This document shows positions 2,347 through 61,304 of a stretch of DNA of 64,000 nucleotides, one piece after another (position 1 is the first letter of the stretch; each line of letters starts with the position of its first letter). This DNA is from Vampirovibrio chlorellavorus. Lineage in GTDB: Bacteria; Cyanobacteriota; Vampirovibrionia; Vampirovibrionales; Vampirovibrionaceae. The DNA is taken from assembly GCF_003149375.1 (NCBI RefSeq), contig NZ_QFWH01000001.1, forward strand, positions 291,593 to 355,592, written 5' to 3'. A program made the position numbers and the translations under genes. Under the pieces are notes generated by a model, which did no database searches, was not told where the DNA came from, and worked only from the letters and a program-made list of their open reading frames with translations.

Positions 2347-3721
2347 CCTCCCGGCTTTGTGCGGTTAAGCGAGGATCCAGGTGGGTGGAATCATGTTCCA
2401 GAAACACCGGTCCCTTTTTGATTTTTTGATTGAGTAAATAGATGAACAAAATGAACAACAGGGTGTACACGCTTGAAAACAGGATGATAGAGGCCAGAAT
2501 ATCATCGGCCTTGACCACCGGGGAAATGCCCTGCGAGGTTCTGAGCAGTCCATAGACAATCCAGGGTTGGCGGCCAATTTCCGCGGCGGCCCAACCCGCC
2601 TGATTGGCAATCTGGGGCAACATAACGGCAAATACAAAGAGCCACAACACCGGTTTGCAGGTGTACAAGGTACCTTTGAATTTGAGAAACACGCCCAGCA
2701 CGCTGAGACCAATCAGGGTCATGCCAATGGCGATCATCAGGTGATACATCTGGAAGGTGATGTTGACGGGCGGGCGTTCCGTTTTGGGAAACTTGCCCAG
2801 CCCAACCAGCGGCTTCTGGAAGTCGTTGTGGGTCAGGAAGCTGAGTCCGCCCGGAATGGCCAGACCATGCGTTTTTTCCGCTTTTTCATCCACCCAGCCA
2901 AATAAGTACAAATCGGCGGTTTTGTAGGGGTGATAATGCCCTTCCATAGCGGCCAGCTTGGCCGGTTGGTGCTTGGCCACCACCAGGGCCGATTCGTGAC
3001 CGGTTACCAGCTGCAGGAAAGAGGCGATGAGAGCCACGCTCAAGCCAATGTTCATGCCGGCTTTGGCCACTTCCAGATGCTTTTGCTTAATGAGATAAAA
3101 GGCGCTGATACTGAGCAGTAAAAACGCTCCGGCCAGCCAAGCGCCAGTAATAACGTGACTGAGCCGTTCTACGGAGGAGGGGTTGAATACCATGGCCCAA
3201 AAGTCGGTAATTTCCGCCCGCATGGCCCCGTTATGGCTGACCAGATGAAACCCGGCGGGGGTTTGCTGCCAGGAGTTGGCCACTACAATCCATACGGCAC
3301 TAAAGTGGGCGCCCAGACAGACTAAAACAGTGGAGAGAAAGTGCATTTGCTTGCTGACCTTGTTCCAGCCAAACAGCAGCACGGCCAAAAAGCCTGACTC
3401 CAGAAAGAAGGCGAACAGTCCTTCCGCGGCCAGCGCGCTCCCGAAGACATCGCCCACAAACCGGGAATAGTTGGCCCAGTTGGTGCCGAATTGAAATTCC
3501 ATGACGATGCCGGAGGCCACCCCGATTCCGAAAATCAGGGCGAAAATGGACACCCAGAAGTGGGTCATCTGATGATAGACTTCCCGGCCTGTTTTGAGGT
3601 ACAGGCCTTCCATAATGACCAATAGCAGGCCCAGGCCAATGCTAAAGACCGGGAAGATGTAGTGAAAGCTGATGGTTAAGGCAAATTGAACACGGGATAA
3701 CATTACAGGATCCAGAGCCAT
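2327..3721 (-). CDS. cydA: cytochrome bd ubiquinol oxidase subunit I
   Basis: 464-aa membrane protein with a CydA-like N-terminus ([19 protein letters not shown]) and Q-loop region. Sits directly upstream of cydB. Confidence 0.9.
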
Positions 3722-6757: not shown

Positions 6758-7870
6758 TTAGTTGTCTCCGGCGTCCACACTGGCAGCTGTGGCGACGCCG
6801 CCAGCTTGATTGGCCAGTGCGGCCGTGCGCAGTGCGGCGATTTTAGCCCGCACTTCCCCGTCAATTTTTTTCATCACTTCCGGGTTGTCTTTCAGGAAGT
6901 CACGGGCCTTTTCACGGCCTTGCCCGATTTTTTCATCGTTGTAGCTGTACCAGGTACCGGCCTTTTTGACGATGTCCATATCGGTGGCCACATCCAGCAC
7001 GCAGCCTTCCGAGGAAATGCCCTGGCCGAACAGAATGTCAAATTCGCACACCCGGAACGGCGGAGCCACTTTGTTTTTGACCACCCGAACCTTGACCCGG
7101 TTGCCGTATTCTTCCCCGTCTTTTTTCAGGGTTTCTACCCGGCGAATGTCTAAACGCACACTGGCGTAGAATTTGAGGGCGTTCCCCCCGGTGGTGGTTT
7201 CCGGGTTGCCGTACATAACCCCGATTTTTTGGCGCAACTGGTTAATAAAGACCACCGTGGTGCGGGTTTTTCCCACGATGGCAGTCAGTTTCCGCAGGGC
7301 TTGAGACATTAAACGGGCCTGCAAACCCACGTGGGAATCGCCCATTTCGCCTTCGATTTCCGCCTTGGGTACCAGAGCGGCCACGGAGTCAATGACTACA
7401 ATGTCCACCGCGCCGGAGCGCACCAGTTGTTCGGTGATTTCAAGGGCCTGTTCCCCGGTGTCGGGTTGGCTCACCAGCAGTTCATCGATTTTTACCCCGA
7501 TTTTAGCGGCGTATTCGGGATCCAGGGCATGCTCGGCATCCACGAAAGCGGCAATACCCCCGTTTCTCTGTGCTTCGGCAATGACGCTCAAGGTCAAGGT
7601 GGTTTTCCCACTGGATTCCGGGCCGTAAATCTCTACCACACGGCCCCGGGGTAATCCGCCAACGCCCAGGTTCAAGTCTAACGCCAAGGCTCCGGTGGGA
7701 ATGGCATCGAGCCCCACCACCTGACGGTCACCCAGTTTCATGATGGCCCCTTTGCCAAAATCTTTCTCGATCTTGTCCAGGGTGTAGCTCAGGACCTTCC
7801 GGCGTTCCTCAAGGGAAGCATCTTCCAGATTGGCGCTGGTTTTGGCGGATTCTTTGTCTTTAACGGCCAT
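6758..7870 (-). CDS. recA: recombinase RecA
   Basis: Walker [11 protein letters not shown]1/L2 regions and a 370-aa length leave no doubt. Confidence 0.95.
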
Positions 7871-8170
7871 ACGGGTTTCCTTTTCAATCGGGTTGGGAAT
7901 CGATAAATCAAATGCTGGGGCGGGCTTTGGACTGCCCTGTCTGTGCTTCGCCTGCTCTCAACGGAACACTCTCTCGCAGAACATCATGGTACGAAATTGC
8001 GGTCTTGCTGCCTATGCCATTGCAGGCAAACGTTACACACGGCTATTTCGTTTTTTGCACAAAAATAGTATACCTCGAAACTTTGTTCTATGGAAATTAT
8101 TTTCGATAAATTGGCGATAAGGGGCCAAAAGGCTGCGATTCCATAACTACAGACTTTTGGGAGGCGGGCG

Positions 8171-39872: not shown

Positions 39873-41429
39873 CTAGGCGGACAAACAATCCTGCACGGTT
39901 GCCAGCAAACGGCCGTCCTCAATCTGGCGCACCAGCAGGGCTACATCCCCGGCCAGGGTGCGATCCACGGTCAAGGGCGGAATAATTTCCCGAATTTTTT
40001 GGTACACCCGCCATACCCCGTGGCCGGGTTGCAGGTTGCCCCGATACTCCAGACCTTCGGCGGCGGCCAGTAATTCGGCGGCCAGCACCCAGCGGGTATG
40101 CTCCAGAATTTTAGCGGCCTTGCGGGCGGCAATGGCTCCCATGCTCACGTGATCCTCTTTATCGTTGGAGGTGGGAATGGTATCCACCACCGCCGGGTGG
40201 GCCAGAATTTTATTTTCCGAAACCAGGGACGCCGCCGTGTAGTGAATGATCATCAGGCCCGAATTCAAACCTTCTTGCTGCTTTCCGGCCAAAAAGGCGG
40301 GTAGCTCACTGAAAGCCGGATTCATCAGCTTATCAATGCGCCGCTCGCTGATACTGCCCAATTCGCACAAAGCCAGTCCCAATTGCTCCATGGCCATGGC
40401 CACGGGCTCCCCGTGAAAATTGCCCTGAGAGATGATATCGCCATTGGGAAAAACCAGCGGGTTATCAGTGGCCGAATTGATCTCGATTTCCAGCGTTTTC
40501 CGGGCTGAGGCGATCAACTCTCGAGCGGCCCCATGCACTTGCGGAATGCAGCGCAACGAGTAGGCGTCCTGCACTTTGGCGCAATCCCGATGCGATTCCA
40601 TAATCTCGCTACCGGCCAGTAAATTCCGAATAATAGCCGCCGATTGGGCATGTCCGGCATGGGCTCGAACCTGTGCCACTCGGGCATCAAAGGGTTTTTG
40701 GCTGCCTTTTACAGCCTCAATGGTCATGGCCCCGGCCACTTCCGCCACGGCCAGCAGCGATTCCGCCTGTAACAGGGTCAGCGCTCCCACCGCTGTCATC
40801 ATCTGGGTGCCATTCAGCAGGGCCAGCCCTTCTTTGGCTTTCAGCGTTAAAGGCTGGATATTAGCTCGTTTCAACGCCTCCGCACCGGGTAACCAATCGC
40901 CTTGGTAATAGGCCTTGCCTTCGCCCATCAGCACCAGCGTCATATGGGCCAGGGGCGCCAAGTCCCCACTGGCCCCCAAAGAACCCTGGGAGGGAATGCT
41001 GGGATAAACCCCGGCATTCAGTAAAGCCAGCAAGGTTTCCACCACCACCGGGCGAACCCCGGAAAAGCCTTTGGCCAGGGTATTGGCCCGGAGCAGCATC
41101 ATGGCCCGCACCACCGGAAATTCCAGAACAGGGCCAGTCCCAGCGGCATGGCTGCGCACCAGATTAGCCTGCAACTGGTCCACCTGCTCGGCGGAAATAG
41201 AGACGTGACTGAGTGCCCCAAACCCTGTGTTGACGCCATACACCATTTTGCCCGACTTCAGGACATCCTCCACCACTTGCCGGGAGGCTTGCAATTTGGC
41301 CAAACAGTCATCGGCCAGCGCAATCCTGATGGCAGCGTTCAAGCTGGCCTCTTGCAAGCCTTCCAGAGTCAGGCTGTCGCCGTTAAGCGGCAAAATTGTG
41401 TTTGTAAGGGTCATAAGCACTTTTCCCAC
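39873..41429 (-). CDS. hutH: aromatic amino acid ammonia-lyase, HAL/PAL family
   Basis: MIO-forming Ala-Ser-Gly triad in GSLGASGDLAPLAH. 518 aa. Annotated as a probable histidine ammonia-lyase, but hutU lies 22 kb away, so a PAL/TAL function is not excluded. Confidence 0.75.
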   Translation of the reverse strand: MGKVLMTLTNTILPLNGDSLTLEGLQEASLNAAIRIALADDCLAKLQASRQVVEDVLKSGKMVYGVNTGFGALSHVSISAEQVDQLQANLVRSHAAGTGPVLEFPVVRAMMLLRANTLAKGFSGVRPVVVETLLALLNAGVYPSIPSQGSLGASGDLAPLAHMTLVLMGEGKAYYQGDWLPGAEALKRANIQPLTLKAKEGLALLNGTQMMTAVGALTLLQAESLLAVAEVAGAMTIEAVKGSQKPFDARVAQVRAHAGHAQSAAIIRNLLAGSEIMESHRDCAKVQDAYSLRCIPQVHGAARELIASARKTLEIEINSATDNPLVFPNGDIISQGNFHGEPVAMAMEQLGLALCELGSISERRIDKLMNPAFSELPAFLAGKQQEGLNSGLMIIHYTAASLVSENKILAHPAVVDTIPTSNDKEDHVSMGAIAARKAAKILEHTRWVLAAELLAAAEGLEYRGNLQPGHGVWRVYQKIREIIPPLTVDRTLAGDVALLVRQIEDGRLLATVQDCLSA

Positions 41430-41571: not shown

Positions 41572-43401
41572 CTAGGCGGCCGGTCTGGCTTGCTGGCTCA
41601 TCAGCTTGGTGCCTGCGGCGATACCCGCACCCACGGCCATGGTTCCGGCCAGGAAGGGGCAAACGGCAGCGCCTGTGACCATTGCTCCGGCACCCACCGC
41701 GCTGATCACCGGGTGATCTTTCACGAAGCCGCCAAACTGTTGAATGGCTTGATTGGCGCTGAGTTGCAGGCTTTGCTGGATTTGTGCGGCGGTGCGACCA
41801 TTTTGCTGGGCACGCTGCACGGACTGGGCTTGAACTTGCTGTGCAGTGACACCGGGGGCACCCATGAAGATCTTGTCCAGAACTTTCTCGTTGGCCGCCC
41901 GCAAGGCATCCCCGTTCAACTGACCATCAATAGCCAGGTCATTCTGCAGCAGGGACAGTGTTTCAGGGTCGATATTGGTGTCCTGGTTTCCAAAGGAGCG
42001 TCCATCCAGTGAATTCGCGTTCCCCAGGGTAATGGCCAGAATATCGCCATCGACACTGCCGTCACCGCTGAACAGGGTAGCGTGACCTGCCAAACGGTAT
42101 ACGGCCTGCTCATACCGGCTTAGTCCCGATTGTTGTTCCAGGGTCCCAATATCACTGGTAATATTGAGTGGCTGGTTTATTTCCTGCAGCACGGCTTCCC
42201 GGTTGGGATTGTTGACCATTTTGGCCACTCGGGCGTCAATGGCCTGATGGTAAGCCTGTAGCTTTTCGGGCGAAATATCGCCGCGAGCTGCCATCTGATC
42301 CGCAAAGTCGTGATCCAGATTGGAGCCGGTGATCATCCCGTACCGGGCTTTTTCATCGGCGGCATACTGCTGAATCATGGTTACTTCATCCGGAGTAAAG
42401 TTGTTGGGGTTGTTCAATACGTTGCCATAAATCCGGGCCGAGCCAGACACGCCATTGGCGCTGGTGCCAGCGGAAATATGAGCGCGGCCACCCATGTGCA
42501 TGATGGCGGCATCACGTCCGGATACGCCATTGAAGGCTTGCTTGCCGCCCCGAACGTTGGCATAGTCAGCTCCACCATTGGGATTGGCTTTCAGGTCGCT
42601 GTAATTCAGGGCCCGACGCTGCTCAATGGTCATACTATCGGCAGAGCCAATGCCATTTGTTGGTGGAATCGTGCCTGGCGCACCAGCAGCACCTCCCGGA
42701 GGAACAGCGCCAGGAGCGCCAGCACCGGGAATATCGGCAGCTCCGCCGCCACCGGGACAGCCACGTTTTTTACCACCCGGGGGCACTACAGCACCACCCG
42801 GAGCGCCCGGCACATTGGGTGCTAGGCCACCATAACCACCACCGGCAGGAGGCGTCGCGCCACCATAACCTGGCGGTGTAGCCGGTGCGGGAGGCGTTGC
42901 GCCACCATAGCCCGGCGGTGTCACCGGTGCAGGAGACGTTGCGGCACCATAACCACCACCGGCAGGAGGGGGCGGGTCACCAGAGCCCGGCGGTGTCACC
43001 GGTGCAGGAGACGTTGCGCCAGCATAACCCGGAAGACCCGGAAGACTTGGAAGGGCAGGTAGGCTGCCGGTAATGGCAGCACCACCGGGTGCAGCAGCAC
43101 CTGAGCCCAGATCAGCGCCTGCCACTGCCTTTGTGGCATCGGCACCAACTGGGGCCTTTGAAGCATCGGCACTGCCTGTACCGGCCTGCGGTTGTTTGGA
43201 GCCCAGTTCCCTCTCAAGAAATGGCATTAATTGCACCAGGATTTGGACTATGGACATTATGTTGAACGAACTACCGGCAGCAGCACTGCTCACAGTAGAA
43301 GTGACATCCACTTGAGGAGCAAGAGATAAAGGGACACTGGCGGCCATTAAGGGCAGGCGGCCAGCCAAAGGTCTGGCTTGAAGGCTAAGGGGTTGCATCA
43401 T
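41572..43401 (-). CDS. large Gly/Pro-repeat secreted protein with a C-terminal glycine-zipper hydrophobic tail
   Basis: 609 aa. N-terminal hydrophobic leader. About 150 aa of GYGGAT(S/P)PAP(V/A)TPP 14-aa repeats. Then a roughly 330-aa domain with no family I recognise, and a C-terminal AVGAGAMVTGAAVCPFLAGTMAVGAGIAAG segment. Confidence 0.55.
   Translation of the reverse strand: MMQPLSLQARPLAGRLPLMAASVPLSLAPQVDVTSTVSSAAAGSSFNIMSIVQILVQLMPFLERELGSKQPQAGTGSADASKAPVGADATKAVAGADLGSGAAAPGGAAITGSLPALPSLPGLPGYAGATSPAPVTPPGSGDPPPPAGGGYGAATSPAPVTPPGYGGATPPAPATPPGYGGATPPAGGGYGGLAPNVPGAPGGAVVPPGGKKRGCPGGGGAADIPGAGAPGAVPPGGAAGAPGTIPPTNGIGSADSMTIEQRRALNYSDLKANPNGGADYANVRGGKQAFNGVSGRDAAIMHMGGRAHISAGTSANGVSGSARIYGNVLNNPNNFTPDEVTMIQQYAADEKARYGMITGSNLDHDFADQMAARGDISPEKLQAYHQAIDARVAKMVNNPNREAVLQEINQPLNITSDIGTLEQQSGLSRYEQAVYRLAGHATLFSGDGSVDGDILAITLGNANSLDGRSFGNQDTNIDPETLSLLQNDLAIDGQLNGDALRAANEKVLDKIFMGAPGVTAQQVQAQSVQRAQQNGRTAAQIQQSLQLSANQAIQQFGGFVKDHPVISAVGAGAMVTGAAVCPFLAGTMAVGAGIAAGTKLMSQQARPAA
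42859..43017. repeat. 42-bp tandem DNA repeats inside the Gly/Pro-rich gene
   Basis: Units gccaccata(a/g)cc(t/c)ggcggtgt(a/c)(g/a)ccggtgc(g/a)gga(g/g)(g/a)cgttgc repeated 3 to 4 times. They encode the 14-aa peptide repeat. Confidence 0.7.
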
Positions 43402-43628: not shown

Positions 43629-43949
43629 TTAGCGAACCCAAAACAGGGCCAGCATTTTCCAAACAGCCTTTAGTCCCGTAAACAAATAATGAATGGAAAA
43701 GCACAAGCCCACATGCCCGAAGCCTTCCCCCAAAATTTGGGCAGGCACAATGCCCGTTGTGATCAACCATTGACTCATGCCGGTTTGATCGATCAGATAG
43801 TGCCCTAACAAGGGAAACAGGGGCACAAATAAGAAACTTTTCAGGGCAATTTTGCTGTATCGGAAACTCAAGGCCACCCGACGAGAAGCATCAGAGGCCT
43901 CTGTTTCCTGGTTGGAAACGGTTAAAGAAAGCGATTTTGCATTAGCCAA
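43629..43949 (-). CDS. small membrane protein of unknown function
   Basis: 106 aa, two predicted TM helices. Lies directly downstream of fur on the same strand. Confidence 0.4.
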   Translation of the reverse strand: MANAKSLSLTVSNQETEASDASRRVALSFRYSKIALKSFLFVPLFPLLGHYLIDQTGMSQWLITTGIVPAQILGEGFGHVGLCFSIHYLFTGLKAVWKMLALFWVR

Positions 43950-43989: not shown

Positions 43990-44391
43990 TTAAGGGGTTT
44001 GCATACAACTGGCGCAGAGCCCAAACACTTCAAAATTGTGGTAATCCACCCGGAACTTGCCTTTCAGTTCACTGAGAACGGGCTGAAACGGGCAGCTGTC
44101 CAGCATCTGCACTTTTTCGCACCGGGTGCAAATCAGGTGGTGATGATGCATGTGCTGATTGTTCAATTCATAGCGCACCTGGCCATCATTAAAATTGAGC
44201 GGCTTAATGCGAGCCTCCGAGACCAGCTGGTTCAAGGCCCGGTATACACTGGTCAAACTGACTTTTTTGGCACCGGGGGCTCGATTGATCCAGTCCATGA
44301 CATCGGGTGCCGTGGCGTGGTTTAGCTGCTGAAGGGCTTCCAGCACAGCCTGAGTGGATTTGGCTGGACGATTGGAGGTGACTACGCTCAT
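43990..44391 (-). CDS. fur: Fur-family metalloregulator (Fur/Zur)
   Basis: 133 aa. DNA-binding helix region plus HHHLICTRCEKV ... C metal-site motifs. Confidence 0.8.
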   Translation of the reverse strand: MSVVTSNRPAKSTQAVLEALQQLNHATAPDVMDWINRAPGAKKVSLTSVYRALNQLVSEARIKPLNFNDGQVRYELNNQHMHHHHLICTRCEKVQMLDSCPFQPVLSELKGKFRVDYHNFEVFGLCASCMQTP

Positions 44392-44491
44392 GAAATGAAA
44401 ACCATTTTTATTTGTGGCCGAATGTTAGCATAAACATTCTGGACACGCTCGTGGATTTTATTCGTTTGACAAACCGGTGTCTCTACTTAAA

Positions 44492-44510
44492 AATGAAAAT
44501 CATTTTCATT
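44492..44510. promoter_or_regulatory. Fur-box-like 9-1-9 perfect palindrome between fur and the divergent operon
   Basis: AATGAAAATCATTTTCATT, which resembles the (GATAATGATAATCATTATC) Fur/Zur operator class. A second degenerate copy sits at 44395..44418 over the fur start. Confidence 0.5.
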
Positions 44511-44574
44511 TTGTGCCCTTGCGGAACCTTTTTATAAAAGCTCACCAAAATCCAACGGACAATTACCAATTATC

Positions 44575-45405
44575 ATGGTTACCTTCACGCCCGGCCTTAA
44601 CGGACTCTATCCAGCCACCGCTCTAAACCCGGGGCTTCCTTCCGCCTGGAAGCAGGCAACAGGTGTTTCTCCCCTGGCGGTATCCGCAATAGCGGGTGCA
44701 GGTCAGACTCCAAAGGCCCAGTCACCGGTCTTGAATGCCCATGTCAGCCATCAAAATTCGACCCTGCTGCATGTGGGTAAGGGCGCCGCTTTGATTACTG
44801 GCGCTCTTCTGCTAAAAAAATTGCCCGCACGGACGGTTTCCCATTTTCGGCTGTTTTCCACGGACTGGAAGGAGTGGGCCAAGGTGCTTCTGGCCATTGG
44901 CGGATTGGGAGAAGCTCAAAAGGCCATCCACTGGAAGCCCCCCGTTTGGCTCAGCGCCATGTTCAACGTGGCCGTGGTCACGCCGCTTGTTACCAAACTG
45001 AACCTGCAAAATGTTTTGCACGGGGTTATCCTCTCCCCTCTGGTGGGGGGATTGGCTGGGCTGAATCATTATCTGGGAGAAAAAGCGGAACAGCCCGCTC
45101 AGACATATCTGCATTTACCGGCCACCGCCACGCGCATTCTGCTATCGGCCCTGACCACCCTGACCGGTCTGGCGATCTTGCCCGCGGTGGGCAAAGCCAT
45201 TCCCCTGCCTGCCAAATCCTGGCCGGGCCAAAGTACAGCGCAAGCCACCGCGGCATCGGATACTGCGGCCCGGGCCGGAGCCGGTACCATTTGCGCCAAC
45301 GGGTGCTGTGCCAGCCTGATTTGCGCCAATGAGGCCGTGCAAATGGGCTCCGCCATGCTGGGTTCGCATCAGGCCCGTCAGCACGACAGAAAGACGCAGC
45401 CATGA
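44575..45405 (+). CDS. membrane-associated protein of unknown function with a Cys-rich C-terminus
   Basis: 276 aa. Hydrophobic segments. C-terminal ICANGCCASLICANEAV. First gene downstream of the Fur-like box. Confidence 0.4.
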   Translation: MVTFTPGLNGLYPATALNPGLPSAWKQATGVSPLAVSAIAGAGQTPKAQSPVLNAHVSHQNSTLLHVGKGAALITGALLLKKLPARTVSHFRLFSTDWKEWAKVLLAIGGLGEAQKAIHWKPPVWLSAMFNVAVVTPLVTKLNLQNVLHGVILSPLVGGLAGLNHYLGEKAEQPAQTYLHLPATATRILLSALTTLTGLAILPAVGKAIPLPAKSWPGQSTAQATAASDTAARAGAGTICANGCCASLICANEAVQMGSAMLGSHQARQHDRKTQP

Positions 45406-45719
45406 TCATCCCAAGCCAACTCAGCCGTGCAACTTATCTGCTTTCATCCACAGGGGAGCAGCGCAGGCTACAGTTCGGGCATGCCCCCAGGCCCCAACCC
45501 AAAGATACCCGGGAGTGGTTGAAAACTTTCGCCCTGGACTTGTTCATGCCCCACAAGGTTATTCCCAATAAACCCGACCCCGAAGCCCCACCGCACCCGC
45601 TGGCTGATAAAAACGTGCTGCAAAAAGTAGGCCTATGGTTTCAGGCATTGGTGGCAGGTTTTTTTAAGGACATAAAACACATGTGGGAACAGTGCCGCCC
45701 TGCGCCCAAGCCCCGGTAG
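45402..45719 (+). CDS. hypothetical protein
   Basis: 105 aa. Start overlaps the previous stop (ATGA). No family recognised. Confidence 0.3.
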   Translation: MIIPSQLSRATYLLSSTGEQRRLQFGHAPRPQPKDTREWLKTFALDLFMPHKVIPNKPDPEAPPHPLADKNVLQKVGLWFQALVAGFFKDIKHMWEQCRPAPKPR

Positions 45720-45799
45720 ACTGGCCATAGCCTTCCGAACGGAAAAGACACCGTTAGATAGAAGATCCTTACTTTGACAAAACACACTGAAAGGTTTTT

Positions 45800-46231
45800 A
45801 TGATTTCCTCCATTGCTCACCGCCCGGTTTATACTCCCAATCCGCTTCGGACAGGAACTCCATCCCGATCCCTGCCCCAGAGCAGTGTGCGATTTGGGCA
45901 CGGCCCCGGGCACGTCCATGCCGATGGGCAGGCTTGCAGTGACAAGAACTGCACCGAAGGCCAAAAGGGAGAGCGTCAATCCCGTTTTCAGCAGTTTTTT
46001 GACTGGGTGAAAGCCACTTGGCAGAAGTTCAAGGACTTTTGCGCCAGCCTGTTTGGGCAATCGAAGCCGCAAGAGACCACCACGACTGCCGCAAGCACCC
46101 CCGCGGTCACGGCAACCCCTGCGCCTGCCGAGCAGCCAGCAACACAGACGTCGCATAAGCATGAGAGCCACACCGGCCATGATCACAAACACGGCCAATG
46201 CTGTGGCAAAAAACACAGCCACAGCCATTAA
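45800..46231 (+). CDS. His/Cys-rich putative metal-binding protein
   Basis: 143 aa. GHVHADGQACSDKNC segment and C-terminal HKHESHTGHDHKHGQCCGKKHSHSH tail. Third gene of the putatively Fur-controlled operon. Confidence 0.45.
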   Translation: MISSIAHRPVYTPNPLRTGTPSRSLPQSSVRFGHGPGHVHADGQACSDKNCTEGQKGERQSRFQQFFDWVKATWQKFKDFCASLFGQSKPQETTTTAASTPAVTATPAPAEQPATQTSHKHESHTGHDHKHGQCCGKKHSHSH

Positions 46232-46238
46232 ATAATAG

Positions 46239-46283
46239 GCAATAAAAACACCCCAGACAGGATTCGAACCTGTGACCTACCGC
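46239..46283 (-). repeat. 45-bp direct repeat of the 3' half of tRNA-Arg (att-like site)
   Basis: gcaataaaaacaccccagacaggattcgaacctgtgacctaccgc is identical to 48217..48261, which covers the T-arm and acceptor 3' strand of the intact tRNA. Confidence 0.8.
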
Positions 46284-46362
46284 CTAGCGGTCTAACGGGC
46301 AAAGGTTTCGGGGTTTTCTGTAAACATGGTAAAAGACTCTTGCTGTAAGAAGGGTTTGGCTT

Positions 46363-47670
46363 CTATTCTACTTGCTCTGAAGAGGTTGCCTTCGCCTGAG
46401 TTGTTTTTGACTTGATACGCCCAATGCCTAGTTCATGAAAAAGCGGGATTTGTTGCTTATGGTTGATGATCCTATTCCTGACGTGATCACCCATCGGCAA
46501 TTCATGGGCCTGAGCCTTCCAAACATCCTCAAAGCGAGCGGCCATTTCTAGCGCCGTTTGGACCACAAGCCGAACGGGCAAGTCTGCCCTTTTGGCAAAA
46601 GCCTCGAATGAGGCCTGTGATATTTCCAGCATGTTTTTGGTTTTAGCCAGAGAAAGCCCCATCTCAGGTTCATTAATATAAGCGATAGTAGACACCAGAT
46701 CGTAGGCAGGAGAGAGCTTGGGATGGCGTCGATCGGGATATATTAAGGACCAATTCTTCAGGTGGGCATCCCCGTTCCCTATCGCAAGGTTAAAGACCAG
46801 CAAGCGCACGTATTCCAGTAAGGCTTCTTCTCCTGCTTCTAACCAAAGCAATTTCCCAATATTTTCATAGCTCACCTTTTTATACTTATCTCTGGGATAA
46901 ATGCCAAAAACCTGAGCCATATCTTCGATATGAATCCGCCGCTCATTGTCTCCCCGGTCAAATCGTTTAATGGCCAAAGACTGCCCAAAATCCTGAGCGT
47001 TCATGACCCCTTTTGGCAATCCCTCTATCTTGTCAGAGGCCACAAGCTTCACCTCTGGCACGATTAGCCCCATCGCTTTTGCCAATTGCATCATACTATA
47101 TTCATTCTCAGGAACACCGTTCCACTTCGCAGAAGGCAACTTGATGATCCAATGCCCACCCATCCCATTCACCGGAATGGTAAGGCCTCCCTGGGTTTCC
47201 TCAATCGCTGAGAACTTCATCTGAACCCCGGCCAATGAGAAGTGAAACACCTGCTTGGCCGGTTGATCACTCGGCACTACAGGCATTTCATCGGTTTGGG
47301 GCAAGTACATGGGCTGGGTTCTTGACTCCCGGACCGTTAAGGCGCCGGGCAAGTCGCTCCCTAACAACTTCAACAGGAAAAATTCCCGTTCCGGGTTAAT
47401 ATCTCCTTGTTTGGCCAGATACTCTCTCATGTGGCCTTCTGGCAGTAAGTTTGAAAAAAATGGGGGTAACTTGGTGCGAATCGGTCGCCTGTCTGGCAAC
47501 TTCAGACCCCCTAAAGAATTTTTAAACGAAAGGGATAGCGTGGGCCTTTCCGGATCACGCACATAACGTTCATCGAAAGCAAACAGGTTATTATCACCGG
47601 GCAGTCGCGTGAGATGCCCGATTAACTGCTCATACAAGAACACTTCAAGGATAGTGATTTCGGTCATCAC
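46363..47670 (-). CDS. hipA: HipA-family serine/threonine kinase toxin
   Basis: 435 aa. HipA N-terminal domain. C-terminal kinase core with GDAHLKNWSL catalytic motif. Confidence 0.85.
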   Translation of the reverse strand: MMTEITILEVFLYEQLIGHLTRLPGDNNLFAFDERYVRDPERPTLSLSFKNSLGGLKLPDRRPIRTKLPPFFSNLLPEGHMREYLAKQGDINPEREFFLLKLLGSDLPGALTVRESRTQPMYLPQTDEMPVVPSDQPAKQVFHFSLAGVQMKFSAIEETQGGLTIPVNGMGGHWIIKLPSAKWNGVPENEYSMMQLAKAMGLIVPEVKLVASDKIEGLPKGVMNAQDFGQSLAIKRFDRGDNERRIHIEDMAQVFGIYPRDKYKKVSYENIGKLLWLEAGEEALLEYVRLLVFNLAIGNGDAHLKNWSLIYPDRRHPKLSPAYDLVSTIAYINEPEMGLSLAKTKNMLEISQASFEAFAKRADLPVRLVVQTALEMAARFEDVWKAQAHELPMGDHVRNRIINHKQQIPLFHELGIGRIKSKTTQAKATSSEQVE

Positions 47671-47966
47671 TCAAGCTCCTCACTACTTTCTGAAAGCAGC
47701 ATCTCAGGAAGAGACTTTTCCTCTTGTCCTGATGAGGCAGGCATCATCAGGCTTTGGATGACAGGCGTTAGCTCTCTGGGAACAATGAGCAGATCTAGGC
47801 CCAAAAGGCGGGCCATATCGATCAGGCTGCTAAGCCTGAGATCCACCTCTCCTTTTTCAATTTTGGAGATATGGCTTTGCGGCATGCCTAGCTTTTGACC
47901 TAAAGCGGCCTGACTAAGACCGATGCGTTTTCTTGCTCGGCTCAGTATCTGTATCAACTCGTTCAT
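47667..47966 (-). CDS. hipB: HipB-like XRE-family HTH antitoxin
   Basis: HTH LSQAALGQKLGMPQSHISKIEKG. ATGA overlap with hipA. Start placed at MNELIQ (47966) so that the operator repeats lie upstream. Confidence 0.7.
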   Translation of the reverse strand: MNELIQILSRARKRIGLSQAALGQKLGMPQSHISKIEKGEVDLRLSSLIDMARLLGLDLLIVPRELTPVIQSLMMPASSGQEEKSLPEMLLSESSEELE

Positions 47967-47982
47967 GACTGGATTATATAGT

Positions 47983-48086
47983 ATGGCATATTTTTTATCA
48001 ATATTATATGCCATGCTATATAAACTGCCTGAATTGTTTTATACGCTATGACATATAAATATAAAAAATTATCTGCAATGGCATAT
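47983..48086. promoter_or_regulatory. candidate HipB operator array
   Basis: ATGGCATAT at 47983 and 48078. Inverted copy ATATGCCAT at 48006. Degenerate copy ATGACATAT at 48057. All sit in an AT-rich region upstream of hipB. Confidence 0.4.
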
Positions 48087-48226
48087 AAAAGCCTGCATCC
48101 GCTATCTGTGAAAAGGGGAAATCCTTCTAATGCCTGAGCCTCAAAAAATCTGCCCCGATTACACAGGCATTACACAAGGTTGTAAGCTCTCCAGGCCCTA
48201 ACACCCTAAAATCCTTGCAATAAAAA

Positions 48227-48300
48227 CACCCCAGACAGGATTCGAACCTGTGACCTACCGCTTAGAAGGCGGTTGCTCTATCCAACTGAGCTACTGAGGC
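48227..48300 (-). tRNA. tRNA-Arg (anticodon UCU)
   Basis: Reverse complement folds as a cloverleaf. Acceptor GCCTCAG/CTGGGGT. D-arm GCTCAGTTGGATAGAGC. Anticodon stem ACCGC/GCGGT with loop CTTCTAA. T-arm ACAGGTTCGAATCCTGT. Close to E. coli argU. No encoded CCA. Confidence 0.85.
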
Positions 48301-48422
48301 GTGTCGATAAATAGTAGTTCTATGGTAACAAAAACCGACACGCCTGATAATAGCCTCGACTACAAATAAAACTCACGTCTGCGGACAGCCTCCCCAAGTA
48401 CGCCCAGCCTTGCCTGTAAAGC

Positions 48423-48638
48423 CTAAAAGCCCAAAGCCGCTGTGAATAGGGTTGTCACCGAGGCAAAAATGGTGGTCATCAGGTTATTAAAACTGGGCGG
48501 GGCCACCAATAAACCGGCCAAAACAACGGCCACGGCAATCACCATGGCGCCCACATACTCCACCACCCCTTGCCCCCGAAAGCTCTTCTTCTGCTTGCCA
48601 CACACAATCGCAACCCTCATCACCTTTGGGGTGTCCAT
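48423..48638 (-). CDS. Flp/Fap-family type IVb prepilin
   Basis: G-QGVVEYVGAMVIAVAVV matches the Flp G/xxxEY cleavage motif and hydrophobic stem. The real start is probably MRVAIV at 48620. Confidence 0.55.
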   Translation of the reverse strand: MDTPKVMRVAIVCGKQKKSFRGQGVVEYVGAMVIAVAVVLAGLLVAPPSFNNLMTTIFASVTTLFTAALGF

Positions 48639-48729: not shown

Positions 48730-49086
48730 TTAAGAAGCATAAAGCATATTCTTGAGCTTGCGGTAAAAATTCTCGTGGGGGCCAATCAATAACACCACCA
48801 CACTGTCCGTTTCCGGAGATAACTGGTAGGCAATGCGGAACTCTTTGCCCTTGTAAGTGATGTGATGGGAAAAAACGGTGGTTAAAGGCTGAGACAAACG
48901 CTCACCCAGACGTTCCGGATTTTGACAAAGCCGTAATAAGGCATCTCGAATCAGGATTCGCAGCGGTTTGTCCAGATTTTTCTGGGCCTTATCCGCCGTC
49001 CGGGTTAAATAAAGCGTCCATTCACGCTCAGGTTGTATGCTTTCCGGGGGTAAGGCCGAGAAGCCATCGCTTAGCAAGGCGCTCAT
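48730..49086 (-). CDS. relE: RelE/ParE-family type II toxin
   Basis: Core LRILIRDALLRLCQNPERLGERLSQPLTTVFSHHITYKGKEFRIAYQLSPETDSVVVLLIGPHENFY is characteristic of RelE/StbE. It carries an N-terminal extension of about 25 aa. Confidence 0.7.
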   Translation of the reverse strand: MSALLSDGFSALPPESIQPEREWTLYLTRTADKAQKNLDKPLRILIRDALLRLCQNPERLGERLSQPLTTVFSHHITYKGKEFRIAYQLSPETDSVVVLLIGPHENFYRKLKNMLYAS

Positions 49087-55612: not shown

Positions 55613-57331
55613 GTGGTAAGCACCAATATTGACCAGTTTGATTTCATCAAAATCGGGATTGCCTCGCCCGAGCGCGTAATGAATTGGTCTCACGGCGAGG
55701 TGATGAAGCCCGAGACCATTAACTACCGAACCCTGAAGCCCGAGCGGGATGGCCTGTTTTGCGAGCGTATCTTTGGTCCTTCCAAGGACTGGGAGTGCTA
55801 TTGCGGCAAGTACAAGCGGGTTCGCCACCGAGGCATCGTTTGCGAACGTTGCGGCGTCGAGGTGACTGAATCCAAGGTGCGCCGTCACCGCATGGGCCAT
55901 ATTAAATTGGCCGCACCGGTTACCCATATCTGGTTCCTGAAAGGGATTCCCAGCTACTTGGGCCTGATTCTGGATATGTCCCTGAAGGATTTGGAGCAAG
56001 TGATTTACTTCAACTCCTACGTGGTTCTGGATCCGGGAAATACCGAACTGAAGGCCAACCAGTTGCTCTCGGAAGAAGATTACGAAACCATCCTGGAAGA
56101 AAACGAAGAAGCTCAGCTAGAAGTTGGTATTGGCGCAGAGGCCATCCAGATTTTGCTGTCCCGCTTGAACTTGCAGGAAATGAGTGATGCCCTGAAGCAA
56201 GAGCTGGAAGAAATTACCGGCTCCAGCCAAAAGCGGGTCAAACCGTTGAAGCGTCTGCGCTTGGTGGAATCCCTGCTGCAGAGTGGTACCAACCCTTCCT
56301 GGATGGTCATGGACGTATTGCCTGTGATCCCCCCGGACTTGCGCCCCATGGTGCAGCTGGATGGTGGTCGTTTTGCCACTTCCGACCTGAATGATCTGTA
56401 CCGTCGGGTCATCAACCGGAATAACCGCTTGTCCCGTTTGCTGGAAATGGGCGCTCCGGAAATCATCGTGCGGAACGAAAAGCGGATGTTGCAGGAAGCG
56501 GTGGACGCCTTGATTGACAATGGACGTCGTGGCCGTACGGTCGTGGGCCCCAACAACCGCCCTCTGAAGTCCTTGTCCAACATTATTGAAGGAAAACAGG
56601 GTCGGTTCCGCCAAAACTTGCTGGGTAAGCGGGTTGACTACTCCGGTCGGAGTGTAATCGTGGTCGGTCCCCGGTTGAAACTGCACCAGTGCGGTTTGCC
56701 CAAGGAGATGGCCATTGAGCTGTTCAAGCCCTTTGTCATCAACAAGCTGATTGAACGTGGTGAAAGCCAGAACATCAAGTCGGCCAAAAAGACCATTGAG
56801 CGTCAGGAAACTGTGGTTTGGGACGTTCTCGAAGAGGTCATCAAGGGTCACCCTGTTCTGCTGAACCGGGCTCCAACGCTGCACCGTCTGGGGATTCAGT
56901 CCTTTGAGCCGGTTTTGGTGGAAGGGCGCGCCATCCAGCTCCACCCGCTGGTTTGTACCGCTTTCAACGCCGACTTTGATGGTGACCAGATGGCCGTTCA
57001 CGTACCCCTGTCGGTGGAAGCCCAGACGGAAGCCCGCATGCTGATGATGGCTACCAACAACGTATTGCAGCCTTCAACCGGCAAACCGATTATTACTCCC
57101 TCCCAGGATATGGTTTTGGGCATTTACTACCTGACCCTGGACAACCCCCACGCCACTAAAGGCGCAGGTATGAAATTCTTTAGCTTTGAAGACGCCCTGG
57201 CGGCTTTTGAAGCGGGAGTGATTGATCTGCACGCCAAGGTGATTGTGCGTGATGAAGGTGGTCAACTCATTGAAACCACCGCAGGACGGATTATTTTCAA
57301 CAAAACCGTCCGTCAATCGGTTCTCCAGTAA
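55613..57331 (+). CDS. rpoC1: DNA-directed RNA polymerase subunit gamma (N-terminal part of beta-prime)
   Basis: Zinc-binding [35 protein letters not shown] active site. Ends with a stop 25 nt before rpoC2. Confidence 0.9.
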
Positions 57332-57356
57332 GCATTGAACGAGGTAACAGGCACCT

Positions 57357-60300
57357 ATGAGCATCCTATCGCCCAACAAATCCCAGAAAAAGCAGTTGGA
57401 CTTCATCAACAAGGTGGTTGACAAGAAGGAGTTGAACCGCTTGCTGGCCAAGGTTTATGCCGAAATGGGCATGGCTAAAACCGGTACGCTGGCCAATAAC
57501 CTGAAGGATTTGGGCTTCCGCTACGCTACCAAAGCTGGCGTCACCATTTCCATTGACGATTTAAGCGTTCCTGAAGCAAAGAAAAGTCTGATCAATGACG
57601 CCGAGGCCGAGATTGAGCGGGCTACCCAGCGCTTCATGAAGGGCGAGATCACCGAGGTGGAACGTTATACCAAGGTTATCGACACCTGGAGCGAAACCAC
57701 TGAAAAATTAACCAAGTCCGTGGTCGACAACTTCGACCGCTTGAACCCGGTATACATGATGGCTTTCTCCGGTGCCCGGGGGAACATCAGTCAGGTTCGT
57801 CAGTTGGTGGGGATGCGGGGCCTGATGGCGGACGCACAGGGGCAGATCATTGACTTGCCCATTAAATCCAACTTCCGGGAAGGCTTGAGCGTAACCGAGT
57901 ACATCATTTCCAGCTACGGTGCCCGGAAAGGTCTGGTAGACACCGCCTTGAAAACCGCTGACTCCGGATACCTGACCCGTCGTCTGGTAGATGTCGCTCA
58001 GGACGTGATTATTCAGGAAGCCGATTGCGGTACCACCAACGGGATCCCTATGCGGGCCATCATGGAAGGTGAATCCGAGATCATGTCCCTGGTGGATCGG
58101 GTGATCAGTCGGGCCGCCGCGGTGAACGTGGTGAATGAAGATGGGGAAGTCCTGGTCCCCGCCGGTGAAATCATTACCTTGGCCTTGGCCGATGTGATTG
58201 AGAAATCCAATATCAAAGAAATCCTGATGCGTTCGGTGCTGACTTGCGAAAGCCAGGTCGGAATTTGCCAGAAGTGCTACGGTTGGTCTCTCACCAGTAA
58301 CAAGATCGTTGATATTGGTGAAGCCATTGGGATTATCGCCGCGCAAAGTATCGGGGAGCCTGGTACTCAGCTGACCATGCGTACCTTCCACACGGGCGGT
58401 GTATTCAGCAGCTTGGGCAAACGCGAAATGTTCAAGGCCAAGAGCGATGGCGAAGTGGTCAGCAAGCTACCCACCCGGGACTTCCGGACCCGTCATGGCG
58501 ACACCGTGCAGATGACCACCCGCGATTGCACTCTGGAGATCAAGGGTGCCGACGGTAAGACCAGCAAGTACAACCTGCCTTTCAACACCCAGGTCATGGT
58601 GGCAGCTGGCGACAAGGTGAAAAAAGATCAGATTATCGCCTCGTTTGAACCCACTGCGGGCCGTAAAACGGAGCGGGCTACCAAGGATATTACCGGTAGC
58701 ATGAGCGGAGAAGTCTGGTTTGATGGCTTTGACGCCGATGAAAAACGGGATCGTCAAGGCAACATCAGCCGGACCGCCAACCGCCCCGGTACCATCTGGG
58801 TTCTGGGTGGCGACGTTTACAACTTGCCCACTGGGGCCAAGCACATGGTTCAGGATGGACAAGTGCTGAACGTCGGTGAGATCATCGCTGAAACCCACGT
58901 GGTCAGTGAGCATGGTGGTGAAGTCCGTATTCCCGCTGATCTCGAAATCGAAGAACACAAGGTCGGCAAGGAAACCGTTAAGAAAATCATCAACGGTAAA
59001 GACCTCACCATCATCATTGCCAGCATTTCCCCTAGCAATGCCGAATTGGTGCAGACCAAGAAAGAACAGTTGTGGAAAGTGGGCGACGATGAGGAGACCT
59101 ACATCGTCAAATCCCCACAGGGCACTTCTCTGGAAAACGGCAGTGTGGTCGCCGAGCTGATTGATGAAAGCATGGCCGTTCCCACCAGTGGCCAAATCCG
59201 CTACCTGGATGTGGAAGTCGATGAGCAGCGTATTTTGACCCAAACGGGCAAAATCCTGTTCTTGCCGGAAGAAATCCATCAGGTCAGCAAGGATATCTCC
59301 CTGAAAGTGCCCGGTATCGAATCTGGCATGGAAGTGACCGCGGGTACCGAGATCATCAAGGGTATTACCTGTCAGACGGACGGTATCGTGGAAATTGTGG
59401 AAGAAAACGACATTGTCCGCGAGGTCGTGGTGCGTCCCGGCAAGTTGTTCCGTGTGGACGATATCAGCACCCTGAACGTGGATGATGGTACCGTGGTCAG
59501 CAAAGGCACCGAGGTCGCCCCGGGTATTAAGGCCACCGAAGATTGCGTGGTGACCGTCAACTTCCAGATTGAAGTCCCGGAAGATGATGATGAGGACATT
59601 GAGGACACCAGCGATCTGGAATACGCCGAAGTGCTGTTGCGTCCTTACCAGGAATTCATTATCGAGCCCCGCAAAGTCAAGATTGATTTTGAATCCACCG
59701 ATCCTGACAACATTACCATCGTGCCGGTGACCCAATTGCAGGTGAAGGATGGCGACAAAATTCGCCATATCGAAGGCGCCCCCATTTTGAGAACCAGTCT
59801 GGTTCTGCAAATGAAAGGGTATCTGGAGCGCCTGAAGGCCGTCGCCGAGATCAAGGATGGCAGCAAAAAAGAGGGTGATAACCTGAAGGTGGTGGTTCTG
59901 GAGAACCTGACCATCCGTCGGGAAAATCCTTCCGGATTCAGCTCCCAGAAAACCGCCACCCAGACCCAACTGCTGGTGGAAGATGGCCAGGTGATCGACA
60001 AACGCTCCCCTGTGGTCAAAACGCAGGTTATTACCCACACCAAGGGTCGGGTTAGCCTCGGCAACGCGGCCAATGACAAGGACGTGCGTCGGGTACTGTT
60101 GATTACCGACGATCATGAAACTGTGATCGAGACCAGCACCAAGCCAACCGTTAAAGTGGGCGACTTTGTGACCATGGATCAGGAAATCGCTGCGGTGGAT
60201 AAAACCCCCATTTCCGGACAAGTGACTGCGGTTGACGCCAAGTCCGTGACCATCCGGGAATCCCAGCCCTACCTGATTTCCGGTGGTACCTTGCTGCAAG

Positions 60301-61304
60301 TTGAAAACCGGGCCCTGACCCAACGGGGCGACTTGATTGCCTCGCTGATCTTTGAACGGCAAAAGACCGGGGATATTGTTCAGGGTCTTCCTCGGGTTGA
60401 AGAATTGCTGGAAGGACGGAAGCCCAAGGAGTCCGCCATTATCGCTCCCGTGGACGGTACGGTGGAAATCATCTGGGAAGAGGACGTCCAGCGTTTATAC
60501 CTGACCAGCATCAACGGCCGGGAAGAGATCTCCATTCCGGTTGGCTCCAACATCGTGGTGGAAAACAAACAGGCGGTCAAAGCGGGTCAAGCCCTGACCG
60601 ATGGCCCCATCAACCCCCACGATATTCTGGTTGTCTCCGGCATTGAAGCCGTCCGGGAATACCTGGTGGAAGAAGTTCAGCGGGTTTACCGGTCTCAGGG
60701 TGTAGAGATCGCCGACAAGCACATTGAAGTCATTGTTCGTCAGATGACCAAGAAGGTTCGTGTGGACGAAGCCGGGGATACCACCCTGTTGGGCGGCGAA
60801 CTGGTGGACGAAAAAGCGGGTGCAGAAGCCAACCGTGTTATTGAAGGCAAGGAAGGCAAGCTGCCTGCCGAGTATCACCCGGTTCTGCTGGGTATCACCA
60901 AGGCCAGCTTGAATACCGAGAGCTTCATTTCCGCTGCCTCTTTCCAGGAAACCACCCGGGTTCTGACCGAAGCGGCCGTGGAAGGCAAGCGCGACTTCCT
61001 GCGTGGCTTGAAGGAAAACGTGATTATTGGCCGTCTCATCCCGGCCGGTACCGGTTTCCCTCACTTCAAGGACGAGCGTGCCGATATGTTCGACGACGCC
61101 GAACAGGCTTTGGCCGCCAAGTCCTCGCTGCGTAAACCGTCGGCCATTCTGGAAGAGATTGAAAGCATGTTCGGTTCACCGGAAATCTCGGAAGAGACTA
61201 TGGAAAGCCTGCTCATCGACGATTCCTCCATGCATGTCGAGACCATCGGCGGCGTTGAAGGCGAAGACGAAGACTACTCCAGCGACGCGATTCTGGACGA
61301 CTAG
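57357..61304 (+). CDS. rpoC2: DNA-directed RNA polymerase subunit beta-prime (C-terminal part)
   Basis: Own RBS and ATG. Trigger loop, bridge helix region and a large lineage-specific insertion. 1315 aa, as in cyanobacterial rpoC2. Confidence 0.9.
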   Translation: MSILSPNKSQKKQLDFINKVVDKKELNRLLAKVYAEMGMAKTGTLANNLKDLGFRYATKAGVTISIDDLSVPEAKKSLINDAEAEIERATQRFMKGEITEVERYTKVIDTWSETTEKLTKSVVDNFDRLNPVYMMAFSGARGNISQVRQLVGMRGLMADAQGQIIDLPIKSNFREGLSVTEYIISSYGARKGLVDTALKTADSGYLTRRLVDVAQDVIIQEADCGTTNGIPMRAIMEGESEIMSLVDRVISRAAAVNVVNEDGEVLVPAGEIITLALADVIEKSNIKEILMRSVLTCESQVGICQKCYGWSLTSNKIVDIGEAIGIIAAQSIGEPGTQLTMRTFHTGGVFSSLGKREMFKAKSDGEVVSKLPTRDFRTRHGDTVQMTTRDCTLEIKGADGKTSKYNLPFNTQVMVAAGDKVKKDQIIASFEPTAGRKTERATKDITGSMSGEVWFDGFDADEKRDRQGNISRTANRPGTIWVLGGDVYNLPTGAKHMVQDGQVLNVGEIIAETHVVSEHGGEVRIPADLEIEEHKVGKETVKKIINGKDLTIIIASISPSNAELVQTKKEQLWKVGDDEETYIVKSPQGTSLENGSVVAELIDESMAVPTSGQIRYLDVEVDEQRILTQTGKILFLPEEIHQVSKDISLKVPGIESGMEVTAGTEIIKGITCQTDGIVEIVEENDIVREVVVRPGKLFRVDDISTLNVDDGTVVSKGTEVAPGIKATEDCVVTVNFQIEVPEDDDEDIEDTSDLEYAEVLLRPYQEFIIEPRKVKIDFESTDPDNITIVPVTQLQVKDGDKIRHIEGAPILRTSLVLQMKGYLERLKAVAEIKDGSKKEGDNLKVVVLENLTIRRENPSGFSSQKTATQTQLLVEDGQVIDKRSPVVKTQVITHTKGRVSLGNAANDKDVRRVLLITDDHETVIETSTKPTVKVGDFVTMDQEIAAVDKTPISGQVTAVDAKSVTIRESQPYLISGGTLLQVENRALTQRGDLIASLIFERQKTGDIVQGLPRVEELLEGRKPKESAIIAPVDGTVEIIWEEDVQRLYLTSINGREEISIPVGSNIVVENKQAVKAGQALTDGPINPHDILVVSGIEAVREYLVEEVQRVYRSQGVEIADKHIEVIVRQMTKKVRVDEAGDTTLLGGELVDEKAGAEANRVIEGKEGKLPAEYHPVLLGITKASLNTESFISAASFQETTRVLTEAAVEGKRDFLRGLKENVIIGRLIPAGTGFPHFKDERADMFDDAEQALAAKSSLRKPSAILEEIESMFGSPEISEETMESLLIDDSSMHVETIGGVEGEDEDYSSDAILDD

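Follow-up and report, generated by a model that had tools for sequence, protein, structure and literature searches.

A probable Zur-like Fur-family repressor and a divergent operon encoding a putative metal-handling membrane module in Vampirovibrio chlorellavorus

Vampirovibrio chlorellavorus is a non-photosynthetic relative of the cyanobacteria that preys on Chlorella. In the 64,000 nucleotides of its contig NZ_QFWH01000001.1 that were analysed here (positions 291,593 to 355,592 of assembly GCF_003149375.1; hereafter the window, numbered from its first letter), a gene for a Fur-family regulator, fur, stands divergent to an operon of three genes, A, B and C. We propose, with some reserve, that fur encodes an autoregulated repressor of the Zur type and that the operon, together with a small gene on the fur side, forms a membrane-associated metal-handling module induced by zinc starvation. 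This model builds on the anatomy of the locus, its conservation, the co-occurrence of its genes and a natural fusion of two of its parts. A previous reading of the same DNA, made without database searches (the sequence-only reading), had taken the locus for an uncharacterised metal-responsive module under Fur-family control, and the comparisons described below are in agreement with that interpretation; its further suggestion of metal storage or delivery is conjecture.

Operators and promoters of the divergent units

The regulator gene (43990..44391, minus strand) encodes 133 residues and is separated by 183 bp from gene A (44575..45405, plus strand; 276 residues). The start codon of gene B (45402..45719, plus strand; 105 residues) overlaps the stop codon of A by 4 nt (ATGA), and gene C (45800..46231, plus strand; 143 residues) follows. 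The sequence-only reading had described the operon in these terms, as a membrane protein with a cysteine cluster, an overlapping 105-residue frame and a 143-residue protein ending in HKHESHTGHDHKHGQCCGKKHSHSH, and all three genes are as it stated.

The intergenic region contains a perfect 11-1-11 palindrome, AAAATGAAAATCATTTTCATTTT (box 1, 44490..44512), with the core TGAAAATCATTTTCA at 44494-44508. Its inner part is the perfect 9-1-9 palindrome AATGAAAATCATTTTCATT at 44492-44510, which had been placed between fur and the operon with exact coordinates. The weaker copy that had also been reported does exist, as AATGAAAACCATTTTTATT (box 2, 44394..44412; core TGAAAACCATTTTTA at 44396-44410), but it does not overlap the start of fur as had been thought: the fur ATG is the complement of 44389-44391, and box 2 begins 2 nt upstream of it, at the position expected for the ribosome-binding site. 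With up to three mismatches allowed, boxes 1 and 2 are the only copies of the palindrome in the 64-kb window; 0.03 matches are expected from shuffled sequences, and the observed count was reached in none of 100 shuffles.

A promoter scan found upstream of gene A the -35 hexamer TTGACA (44466..44471, plus strand) and the -10 hexamer AAAAAT (44489..44494, plus strand), which match the consensus at 10 of 12 positions with a spacer of 17 nt. As the -10 hexamer overlaps the left arm of box 1, the operator extends over this hexamer and over the point where transcription of A-B-C is expected to begin. For fur, the candidate promoter element is an extended -10 of the pattern TGnTAnnAT, TGCTAACAT (44422..44430, minus strand), which would place box 2 just downstream of the promoter; the TG, TA and AT positions are invariant (columns G41-A51 of alignment A2) and the adjoining columns vary. 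The promoter scan offers GAGACA-17-TAAAAT at 44483-44455 as an alternative.

When the intergenic regions of five Vampirovibrio species were aligned (mean identity 72%), four blocks proved invariant or nearly so while their flanks drift. These are box 1 (TAAAAATGAAAATCATT[T/A]TCA); TTTGACA, which is invariant in the five species and lies 17 nt before AAAAAT; box 2 (TTGAAAACCATTTTT), also invariant; and, on the minus strand, the TGnTAnnAT of the extended -10 of fur. Conservation of the palindrome upstream of orthologues had been named as a test of the earlier proposal, and it was found in every Vampirovibrio locus examined, with a single substitution in one of them (L002; related loci are given here by L numbers), as well as in distant relatives that carry this regulator. 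The sequence TAAAAATGAAAAT[C/G]ATTTTCA occurs in 13 related loci, and in L042 an identical perfect core has a different left flank. Wherever this regulator is divergent to A (L010, L011, L012, L023, L031, L032, L033, L036 and L042), a perfect TGAAAAT[C/G]ATTTTCA lies directly 5' of A, even though the A proteins of these loci are 22-38% identical to that of the window, apart from the closer orthologue in L033. Box 2 is also present in L012, L031, L032, L033 and L010. Moreover, the relaxed pattern TGAAAA..ATTT..A, looked for in 253 kb of related loci, is restricted to fur-A intergenic regions.

This layout is the classic one of a repressor that would bind in front of a divergent target and of its own gene, and repression of A-B-C by the adjacent Fur-family regulator is well supported at the sequence level. 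It was also observed that several database start codons of A homologues (P0003, P0073, L010:4057-4884) fall upstream of or within the operator. The N-termini that result, for example ...KMKIIFIL or MIFIFK, are artefacts translated from the palindrome, and the true starts lie downstream.

Conservation of the locus

In five further Vampirovibrio loci the arrangement is the same, fur sharing its strand with a small membrane-protein gene and A, B and C occupying the opposite strand, except that L001 has no separately called C gene and L004 lacks the small membrane-protein gene. In the Vampirovibrio loci the module is followed by a ParE toxin-antitoxin pair, fliS, rplJ/rplL and rpoB. In the window the small membrane-protein gene (43629..43949, minus strand; about 106 residues, motif GEGFGHVGLCFSIHY) lies directly 3' of fur on the same strand. 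It is kept 3' of the regulator in L001, L002, L003, L005, L010, L012, L031, L032 and L033, and judged by this linkage it belongs to the unit; its product, for which a Pfam search gave no match, carries EGFGHVGLCFSIHY and may be part of the induced membrane-associated unit. Co-occurrence of the genes next to fur in other genomes, which the sequence-only reading had suggested as a check, is seen in these Vampirovibrio loci and, for A, in divergent relatives, but not throughout the family, since about 8 of the 18 A-family loci outside the genus with available upstream DNA have no adjacent Fur-family gene.

The gene A family

The product of gene A is 100% identical to a V. chlorellavorus entry annotated as hypothetical protein. 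It contains CANGCCASLICAN, the core SxDWKxWAK...WxPPxW and a C-terminal cysteine cluster formed by C240, C244, C245 and C250. An exhaustive profile search collected 103 cluster representatives of this family, 85 of them with E < 1e-10. They have in common the core SxDWKxWAK...NxAxxWxPPxWL and a C-terminal cluster of the form C(A/S)(R/N)GCCxSxxC, CARCGGxHxxC or CGCGNxxC, followed by (N/S)E(I/V)G(E/D); C240 and C250 show no variation and C244 almost none, and in many members HxHxH stands right before the first hydrophobic helix.

Gene A had no match in Pfam or NCBIfam, 37 members of its family gave no consistent Pfam match, and nothing was found when the A profile was compared with the sequences of the PDB. 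An AlphaFold2 model built from 12 Vampirovibrio sequences was not usable (predicted local distance difference test score, pLDDT, of 39), and one built from an alignment of 82 sequences reached a pLDDT of 73.8 and a predicted template-modelling score (pTM) of 0.61. This model has seven helices, four or five of which are hydrophobic enough to span a membrane. A Foldseek search of the PDB with it returned no match (best E = 1.3; TM-scores, normalised to query length, of at most 0.22). The A family is therefore one with no described family, solved relative or fold match. Neither A, B nor C matched the profiles of ZIP, CDF, NiCoT, HupE/UreJ, ZnuABC, COG0523, ZinT or metallothionein, and the fold search, made with A only, did not recover any of them either. 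The sequence-only reading had recognised none of the three proteins, and they do lie outside known families in Pfam, NCBIfam and PDB profile searches and, for A, in Foldseek; likewise, the matches to well-known families unrelated to metals that would have spoken against it were not found for A, B or C.

By sequence, the A family reaches well beyond Vampirovibrio. The only taxonomic label returned by a cluster look-up was 'Oculatellaceae cyanobacterium'. A metagenome scan with a degenerate DNA pattern for DWKxWA[KR]x18PxxW gave 27 loci, 11 of which were chance matches, and a scan of a genome collection with a narrow peptide pattern gave five.

Small partner proteins

B and C, for which Pfam and NCBIfam hold no match, are paralogues of one small-protein family by profile-profile comparison (hhalign probability 85.7%, E = 5.5e-6). 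Both have an xFGH motif near the N-terminus, then a His/Cys patch and an amphipathic helix rich in Trp and Phe; the patch has been lost in the B protein of the window and is kept in its orthologues. In C these elements are VRFGHGPGHVH, CxxxxC, the amphipathic helix and a His-rich tail with CC(G/D)GK, and its last 30 residues include nine His and two Cys. Both proteins evolve fast, with 62-68% identity where A has 76%. Relative to the orthologues in L004, substitutions at third codon positions number 52 in B, against 20 and 23 at the other positions, and 53 in C, against 30 and 24; this excess indicates that B and C are real genes.

Among the related loci examined, which come from one metagenome-assembled genome and from metagenomes, the majority have one small xFGH/His-rich gene 3' of A, including several loci without an adjacent regulator. 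Moreover, in protein P0031 (L038:999-2117; 372 residues, ending in HAGHDHDDHEHDHEHKH) the A core is naturally fused to a partner with xFGH motif, amphipathic helix and His tail. The conserved core is therefore A plus one partner, and the partner has been duplicated in Vampirovibrio. Secretion of B and C was considered and rejected: their N-termini, as read from the sequence, have no hydrophobic stretch or signal-peptide-like character, and fusion to the C-terminus of A implies the same side of the membrane. For these two reasons the cysteine cluster of A and the partner proteins would be cytoplasmic.

Variants of the partner were also seen. A 200-residue Cys-rich form (KFCG...CCVKRF...GCC...RWIKWLA) lies 3' of A in L014, L021 and L025, and L041 (3736-4020, 4962-5366) has a 134-residue Cys-rich form and, upstream of A, a 94-residue protein with an RFGH motif and a transmembrane helix. 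In L024 a gene upstream of A (~7541-7951, match-oriented), whose product shows weak similarity to the small membrane protein with E = 1.2e-13, encodes the His-rich stretch HHHPNGIDSSGHEGHNHGH; no Fur-family gene is nearby.

A second regulator and operator type

In L038, the locus with the fused protein, both the divergent Fur-family gene and the palindrome differ from those described so far. The palindrome, TTGCAA-TAAAG-TTGCAT, is of the 6-5-6 type and follows immediately after a TTGACT-17-(-10) promoter (L038:880-1002). The best matches of the L038 regulator are to E. coli Zur (3.1e-18 in NCBIfam, 1.1e-13 with PDB entry 4mtd), and the E. coli Zur ligands H77, C88, H96 and E111 all align. In L020 (~3340-3375, match-oriented) the sequence ATGCAA-GTAAA-TTGCAA occupies the same position after the -10. 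Since regulator and palindrome differ at L038, the module has come under Fur-family control at least twice.

Sensory site of the regulator

The regulator of the window matches the Pfam FUR family (PF01475) with 69.5 bits, where the gathering cutoff is 23.1 (E = 3.6e-19), over profile positions 11-119 of 121. Its two CxxC pairs, C88/C91 and C126/C129, align with their counterparts in Nur, Fur and Zur structures, as expected for the structural Cys4 zinc site of the Fur family. Overall similarity, in NCBIfam as well as in the PDB ranking, was rejected as a classifier because it does not discriminate among Fur-family members (Nur, Fur and Zur structures rank within two orders of magnitude), and only comparison at the level of the ligands proved informative. 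In this comparison H82, H84, C100 and H118 align to the sensory site D77/H79/C95/H115 of SynZur, the Zur of Synechococcus WH8102 (PDB 7NE9), and they are invariant in 11 orthologues. The cysteine of the LDxCP motif is shared only with SynZur among the solved Fur-family structures compared. SynZur senses zinc through D77/H79/C95/H115 and no longer binds DNA when it carries the C95A mutation, and in 11% of cyanobacterial Zurs a His takes the place of D77 (PMC9337993). By its ligands, the regulator looks like a Zur of the cyanobacterial type rather than an iron Fur.

Several observations weigh against this assignment or against the model as a whole. The canonical inter-domain site (H25, E75 and a His run, H83/H85), which is absent in SynZur, is kept here, and iron, manganese or another metal could be sensed at it. 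The operator departs from the RegPrecise cyanobacterial Zur box, NTNANAATGATNATCATTNTNAN with the core AATGATNATCATT, and only about half of the specified positions in each half-site match. With the inter-domain site retained and the operator different, membership of the cyanobacterial type is incomplete in two of the features compared. In NCBIfam the Fur and PerR models outscore that of E. coli Zur, every score being far below its cutoff, and S. coelicolor Nur (3eyy, 4.6e-13) narrowly leads the PDB ranking. In Mycobacterium avium subsp. paratuberculosis the exact 19-mer of the window is one of the Zur boxes predicted for the zinc regulon (PMC4298942), but the same 15-17-mer is a predicted iron-Fur box in Geobacter, Desulfuromonas and Desulfovibrio (PMC545781), and in Listeria this core occurs as a Fur-like motif. 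The loci outside the genus that have A and no neighbouring Fur-family gene must be counted here too. Finally, the fold of A resembles no known transporter in the Foldseek search of the PDB, and a transport role for A is a proposal.

Which metal is sensed

Because an identical core serves as a predicted Fur box elsewhere, the operator by itself was rejected as evidence for zinc. The ligand comparison, together with the abundance of His and Cys in the products of the module, supports the identity of the metal moderately, and on balance it is probably zinc. An iron-sensing Fur of the organism, with the operon induced by iron starvation and serving, for example, some unusual handling of iron or haem, seems unlikely to us, even though it would account for the retained H25, E75 and His run and for an operator equal to ATGAAAATCATTTTCAT, the delta-proteobacterial Fur consensus, which is also found at autoregulated fur genes (PMC545781). 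The best NCBIfam match, a Bacillus-type Fur (3.2e-17, against 2.3e-7 for E. coli Zur), points the same way, but it reaches 63 bits where the cutoff is 220 (NF051892), and the other iron-Fur models score lower. Moreover, the invariant cysteine at the position of SynZur C95 is missing from every solved Fur that was aligned, His/Cys-rich tails with CC motifs typically ligate zinc or nickel rather than iron, the regulator that accompanies the fused module of L038 resembles E. coli Zur, and no iron-uptake gene is near the locus.

Nickel or cobalt, with a Nur-like sensor, a His-rich nickel store or chaperone comparable to Hpn, HypB or the SlyD tail, and a membrane permease, is in our view a rather improbable solution. 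The His-rich tails with CC(G/D)GK do resemble those of Hpn and SlyD, and S. coelicolor Nur is the top sequence match in the PDB, but its lead over Fur and Zur is marginal. The Nur box is a 6-5-6 element, tTGCaa-N5-ttGCAA, and the nickel site consists of His70, His72 and His126 (PMC2691836). The A-family promoters of L038 and L020 resemble this pattern, with TTGCAA-N5-TTGCAa after the -10, whereas the operator of the window is 7-1-7; in its regulator non-His residues face the three histidines (H126 corresponds to N119), and the regulator of L038 has its best alignment with E. coli Zur and retains each of the four zinc ligands. A PerR-type peroxide sensor, whose thiol- and His-rich products would buffer metals during the attack on photosynthetic prey, is very improbable. 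Its appeal is that the prey is an oxygen-evolving alga, that PerR genes are often autoregulated and that PerR models score near those of Fur (1.3e-14 and 2.6e-14); these scores, 54.4 bits against a cutoff of 180 and 53.6 against 200, are nevertheless far too low, the operator is unlike the PerR box TTATAATNATTATAA, no gene for catalase, peroxiredoxin or Dps lies near the locus, and both the sensory cysteine and the Zur-like partner regulator of L038 would be left without explanation. We give least credit of all to the notion that the palindrome is a mere autoregulatory site of fur, or a chance AT-rich repeat, next to unrelated constitutive orphan genes. The rapid evolution of B and C would suit it, but box 1 lies on the promoter of A, some 100 bp from fur, and is perfectly conserved there across deep divergence, while fur is served by the separate box 2; in addition, gene order, the A-B overlap and the fusion protein tie the genes together.

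Proposed mechanism

According to the zinc-starvation model that we favour, a dedicated, autoregulated repressor of the cyanobacterial Zur type would bind, as a metal-loaded dimer, the two 7-1-7 operators in the intergenic region. The holo-repressor on box 1, which spans the -10 hexamer and the start of transcription, would exclude RNA polymerase from the A-B-C promoter, and occupancy of box 2 would throttle fur and the small membrane-protein gene. When metal, most likely zinc but possibly another divalent metal bound by His and Cys, becomes scarce, the repressor would lose its sensory metal and leave the DNA, and both units would be transcribed.

The induced unit would then capture, import or redistribute the scarce metal. 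A is predicted to be a multi-pass inner-membrane protein with its C-terminal cluster of three or four Cys on the cytoplasmic face, and B and C would be cytoplasmic paralogues with His/Cys metal-binding patches, whose amphipathic helix may dock to the membrane or to A. In this arrangement A could act as conduit or anchor, and B and C as high-capacity acceptors that hand the metal on, so that zinc would be acquired or allocated at the membrane. For this biochemical role we infer from composition, gene linkage and analogy. In a wider sense it is possible, although doubtful, that A and its xFGH/His-rich partner represent a two-component membrane system, so far unrecognised, that acquires or allocates zinc (or nickel/cobalt) and is of a fold and family not yet described. 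Such a system would be shared by Vampirovibrio and related metagenomic lineages, most of them unclassified, and different Fur-family sensors would have taken control of it on at least two occasions, with operators of the 7-1-7 and 6-5-6 types.

Neighbouring genes

On the fur side, a gene for a 609-residue protein (41572-43401, minus strand), whose long N-terminal half is rich in Pro, Gly and Ala and which has no match in Pfam or NCBIfam, lies between the small membrane-protein gene and hutH; relatives have proteins of 479-528 residues at this place. This gene could be within the fur-side transcription unit. The hutH gene itself, for histidine ammonia-lyase, is at 39873-41429 (minus strand), and hutH and hutU (urocanase) are found in L004 and L005.

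Beyond gene C there is an islet of 1.98 kb (46239-48301) with hipA (46363-47670, minus strand) and hipB (47667-48014, minus strand). It is bounded by a 49-nt direct repeat (46239-46287 and 48217-48265, 98% identical) that includes the 3' half of a tRNA-Arg(TCT) gene (48226-48301, minus strand). The islet contains no integrase, and in relatives it is missing from the interval that separates gene C from the ParE toxin-antitoxin pair. A 19-nt repeat (ATTATATAGTATGGCATAT-like) is present in four copies, spaced by 30-35 nt, which overlap the start of hipB and the region upstream of it (47973-48086) and are probably HipB operators. A Flp-type pilin-like frame (48423-48638, minus strand) stands beside the tRNA gene, and a ParE-like toxin gene is at 48730-49086 (minus strand). 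Further downstream, rpoC is split into two genes of 572 and 1315 codons (55613-61304, plus strand), a cyanobacterial trait that agrees with the assignment to Vampirovibrio.

Comparison with known systems and significance

The closest parallel is SynZur, with its znuABC/bmtA regulon. Both regulators belong to the Fur family and have the structural Cys4 site, the sensory D/H-x-H ... C ... H positions all align, including the LD(H/S)CP motif, and both operators overlap the -10 hexamer of divergent promoters; moreover, the lineage of Vampirovibrio is sister to the photosynthetic cyanobacteria. However, besides the differences in operator and inter-domain ligands already described, the targets in the window are proteins of unknown family and not znuABC or a metallothionein. 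The Zur boxes of Mycobacterium and Corynebacterium have an identical 7-1-7 core, TGAAAATNATTTTCA, with the reservation that iron Fur is predicted to use the same core in delta-proteobacteria (PMC545781). The sensory ligands of actinobacterial Zur (Asp/Cys in the hinge) are nevertheless not those conserved here, and its regulons comprise ribosomal paralogues, COG0523 proteins, ESX-3 and znuABC.

For the small proteins, analogies can be drawn with other metal-binding proteins. Hpn, the Hpn-like protein, the C-terminal tail of SlyD, HypB and UreE all have His/Cys-rich metal-binding tails, and B and C are similar to them in their HxH runs with embedded CC or CxxC and in their small size. They differ in having no sequence-family match, in the xFGH motif and amphipathic Trp/Phe helix, in always being paired with a membrane protein and in standing next to a Fur-family repressor instead of NikR. 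In Acinetobacter baumannii the Zur-regulated gene for ZigA adjoins hut genes, which recalls the position of the Zur-type unit near hutH, but there is no COG0523 GTPase at the locus of the window and the adjacency to hutH may be coincidental.

Repression by Fur-family proteins is textbook knowledge; what it marks in this case is a conserved gene pair that no database describes, represented by about 100 sequence clusters. The effector has a realistic prospect of being a metal-handling system of a new type, and the fusion of A with its partner and the two independent pairings with Fur-family regulators provide concrete hypotheses for its biochemistry. The paper on the V. chlorellavorus genome mentions neither iron, zinc, nickel nor Fur. 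If the module is indeed a zinc-starvation system, it would be a new type of effector for Zur regulons and would offer a first view of how non-photosynthetic relatives of the cyanobacteria, among them a predator harmful to commercial Chlorella cultures, manage their metals.

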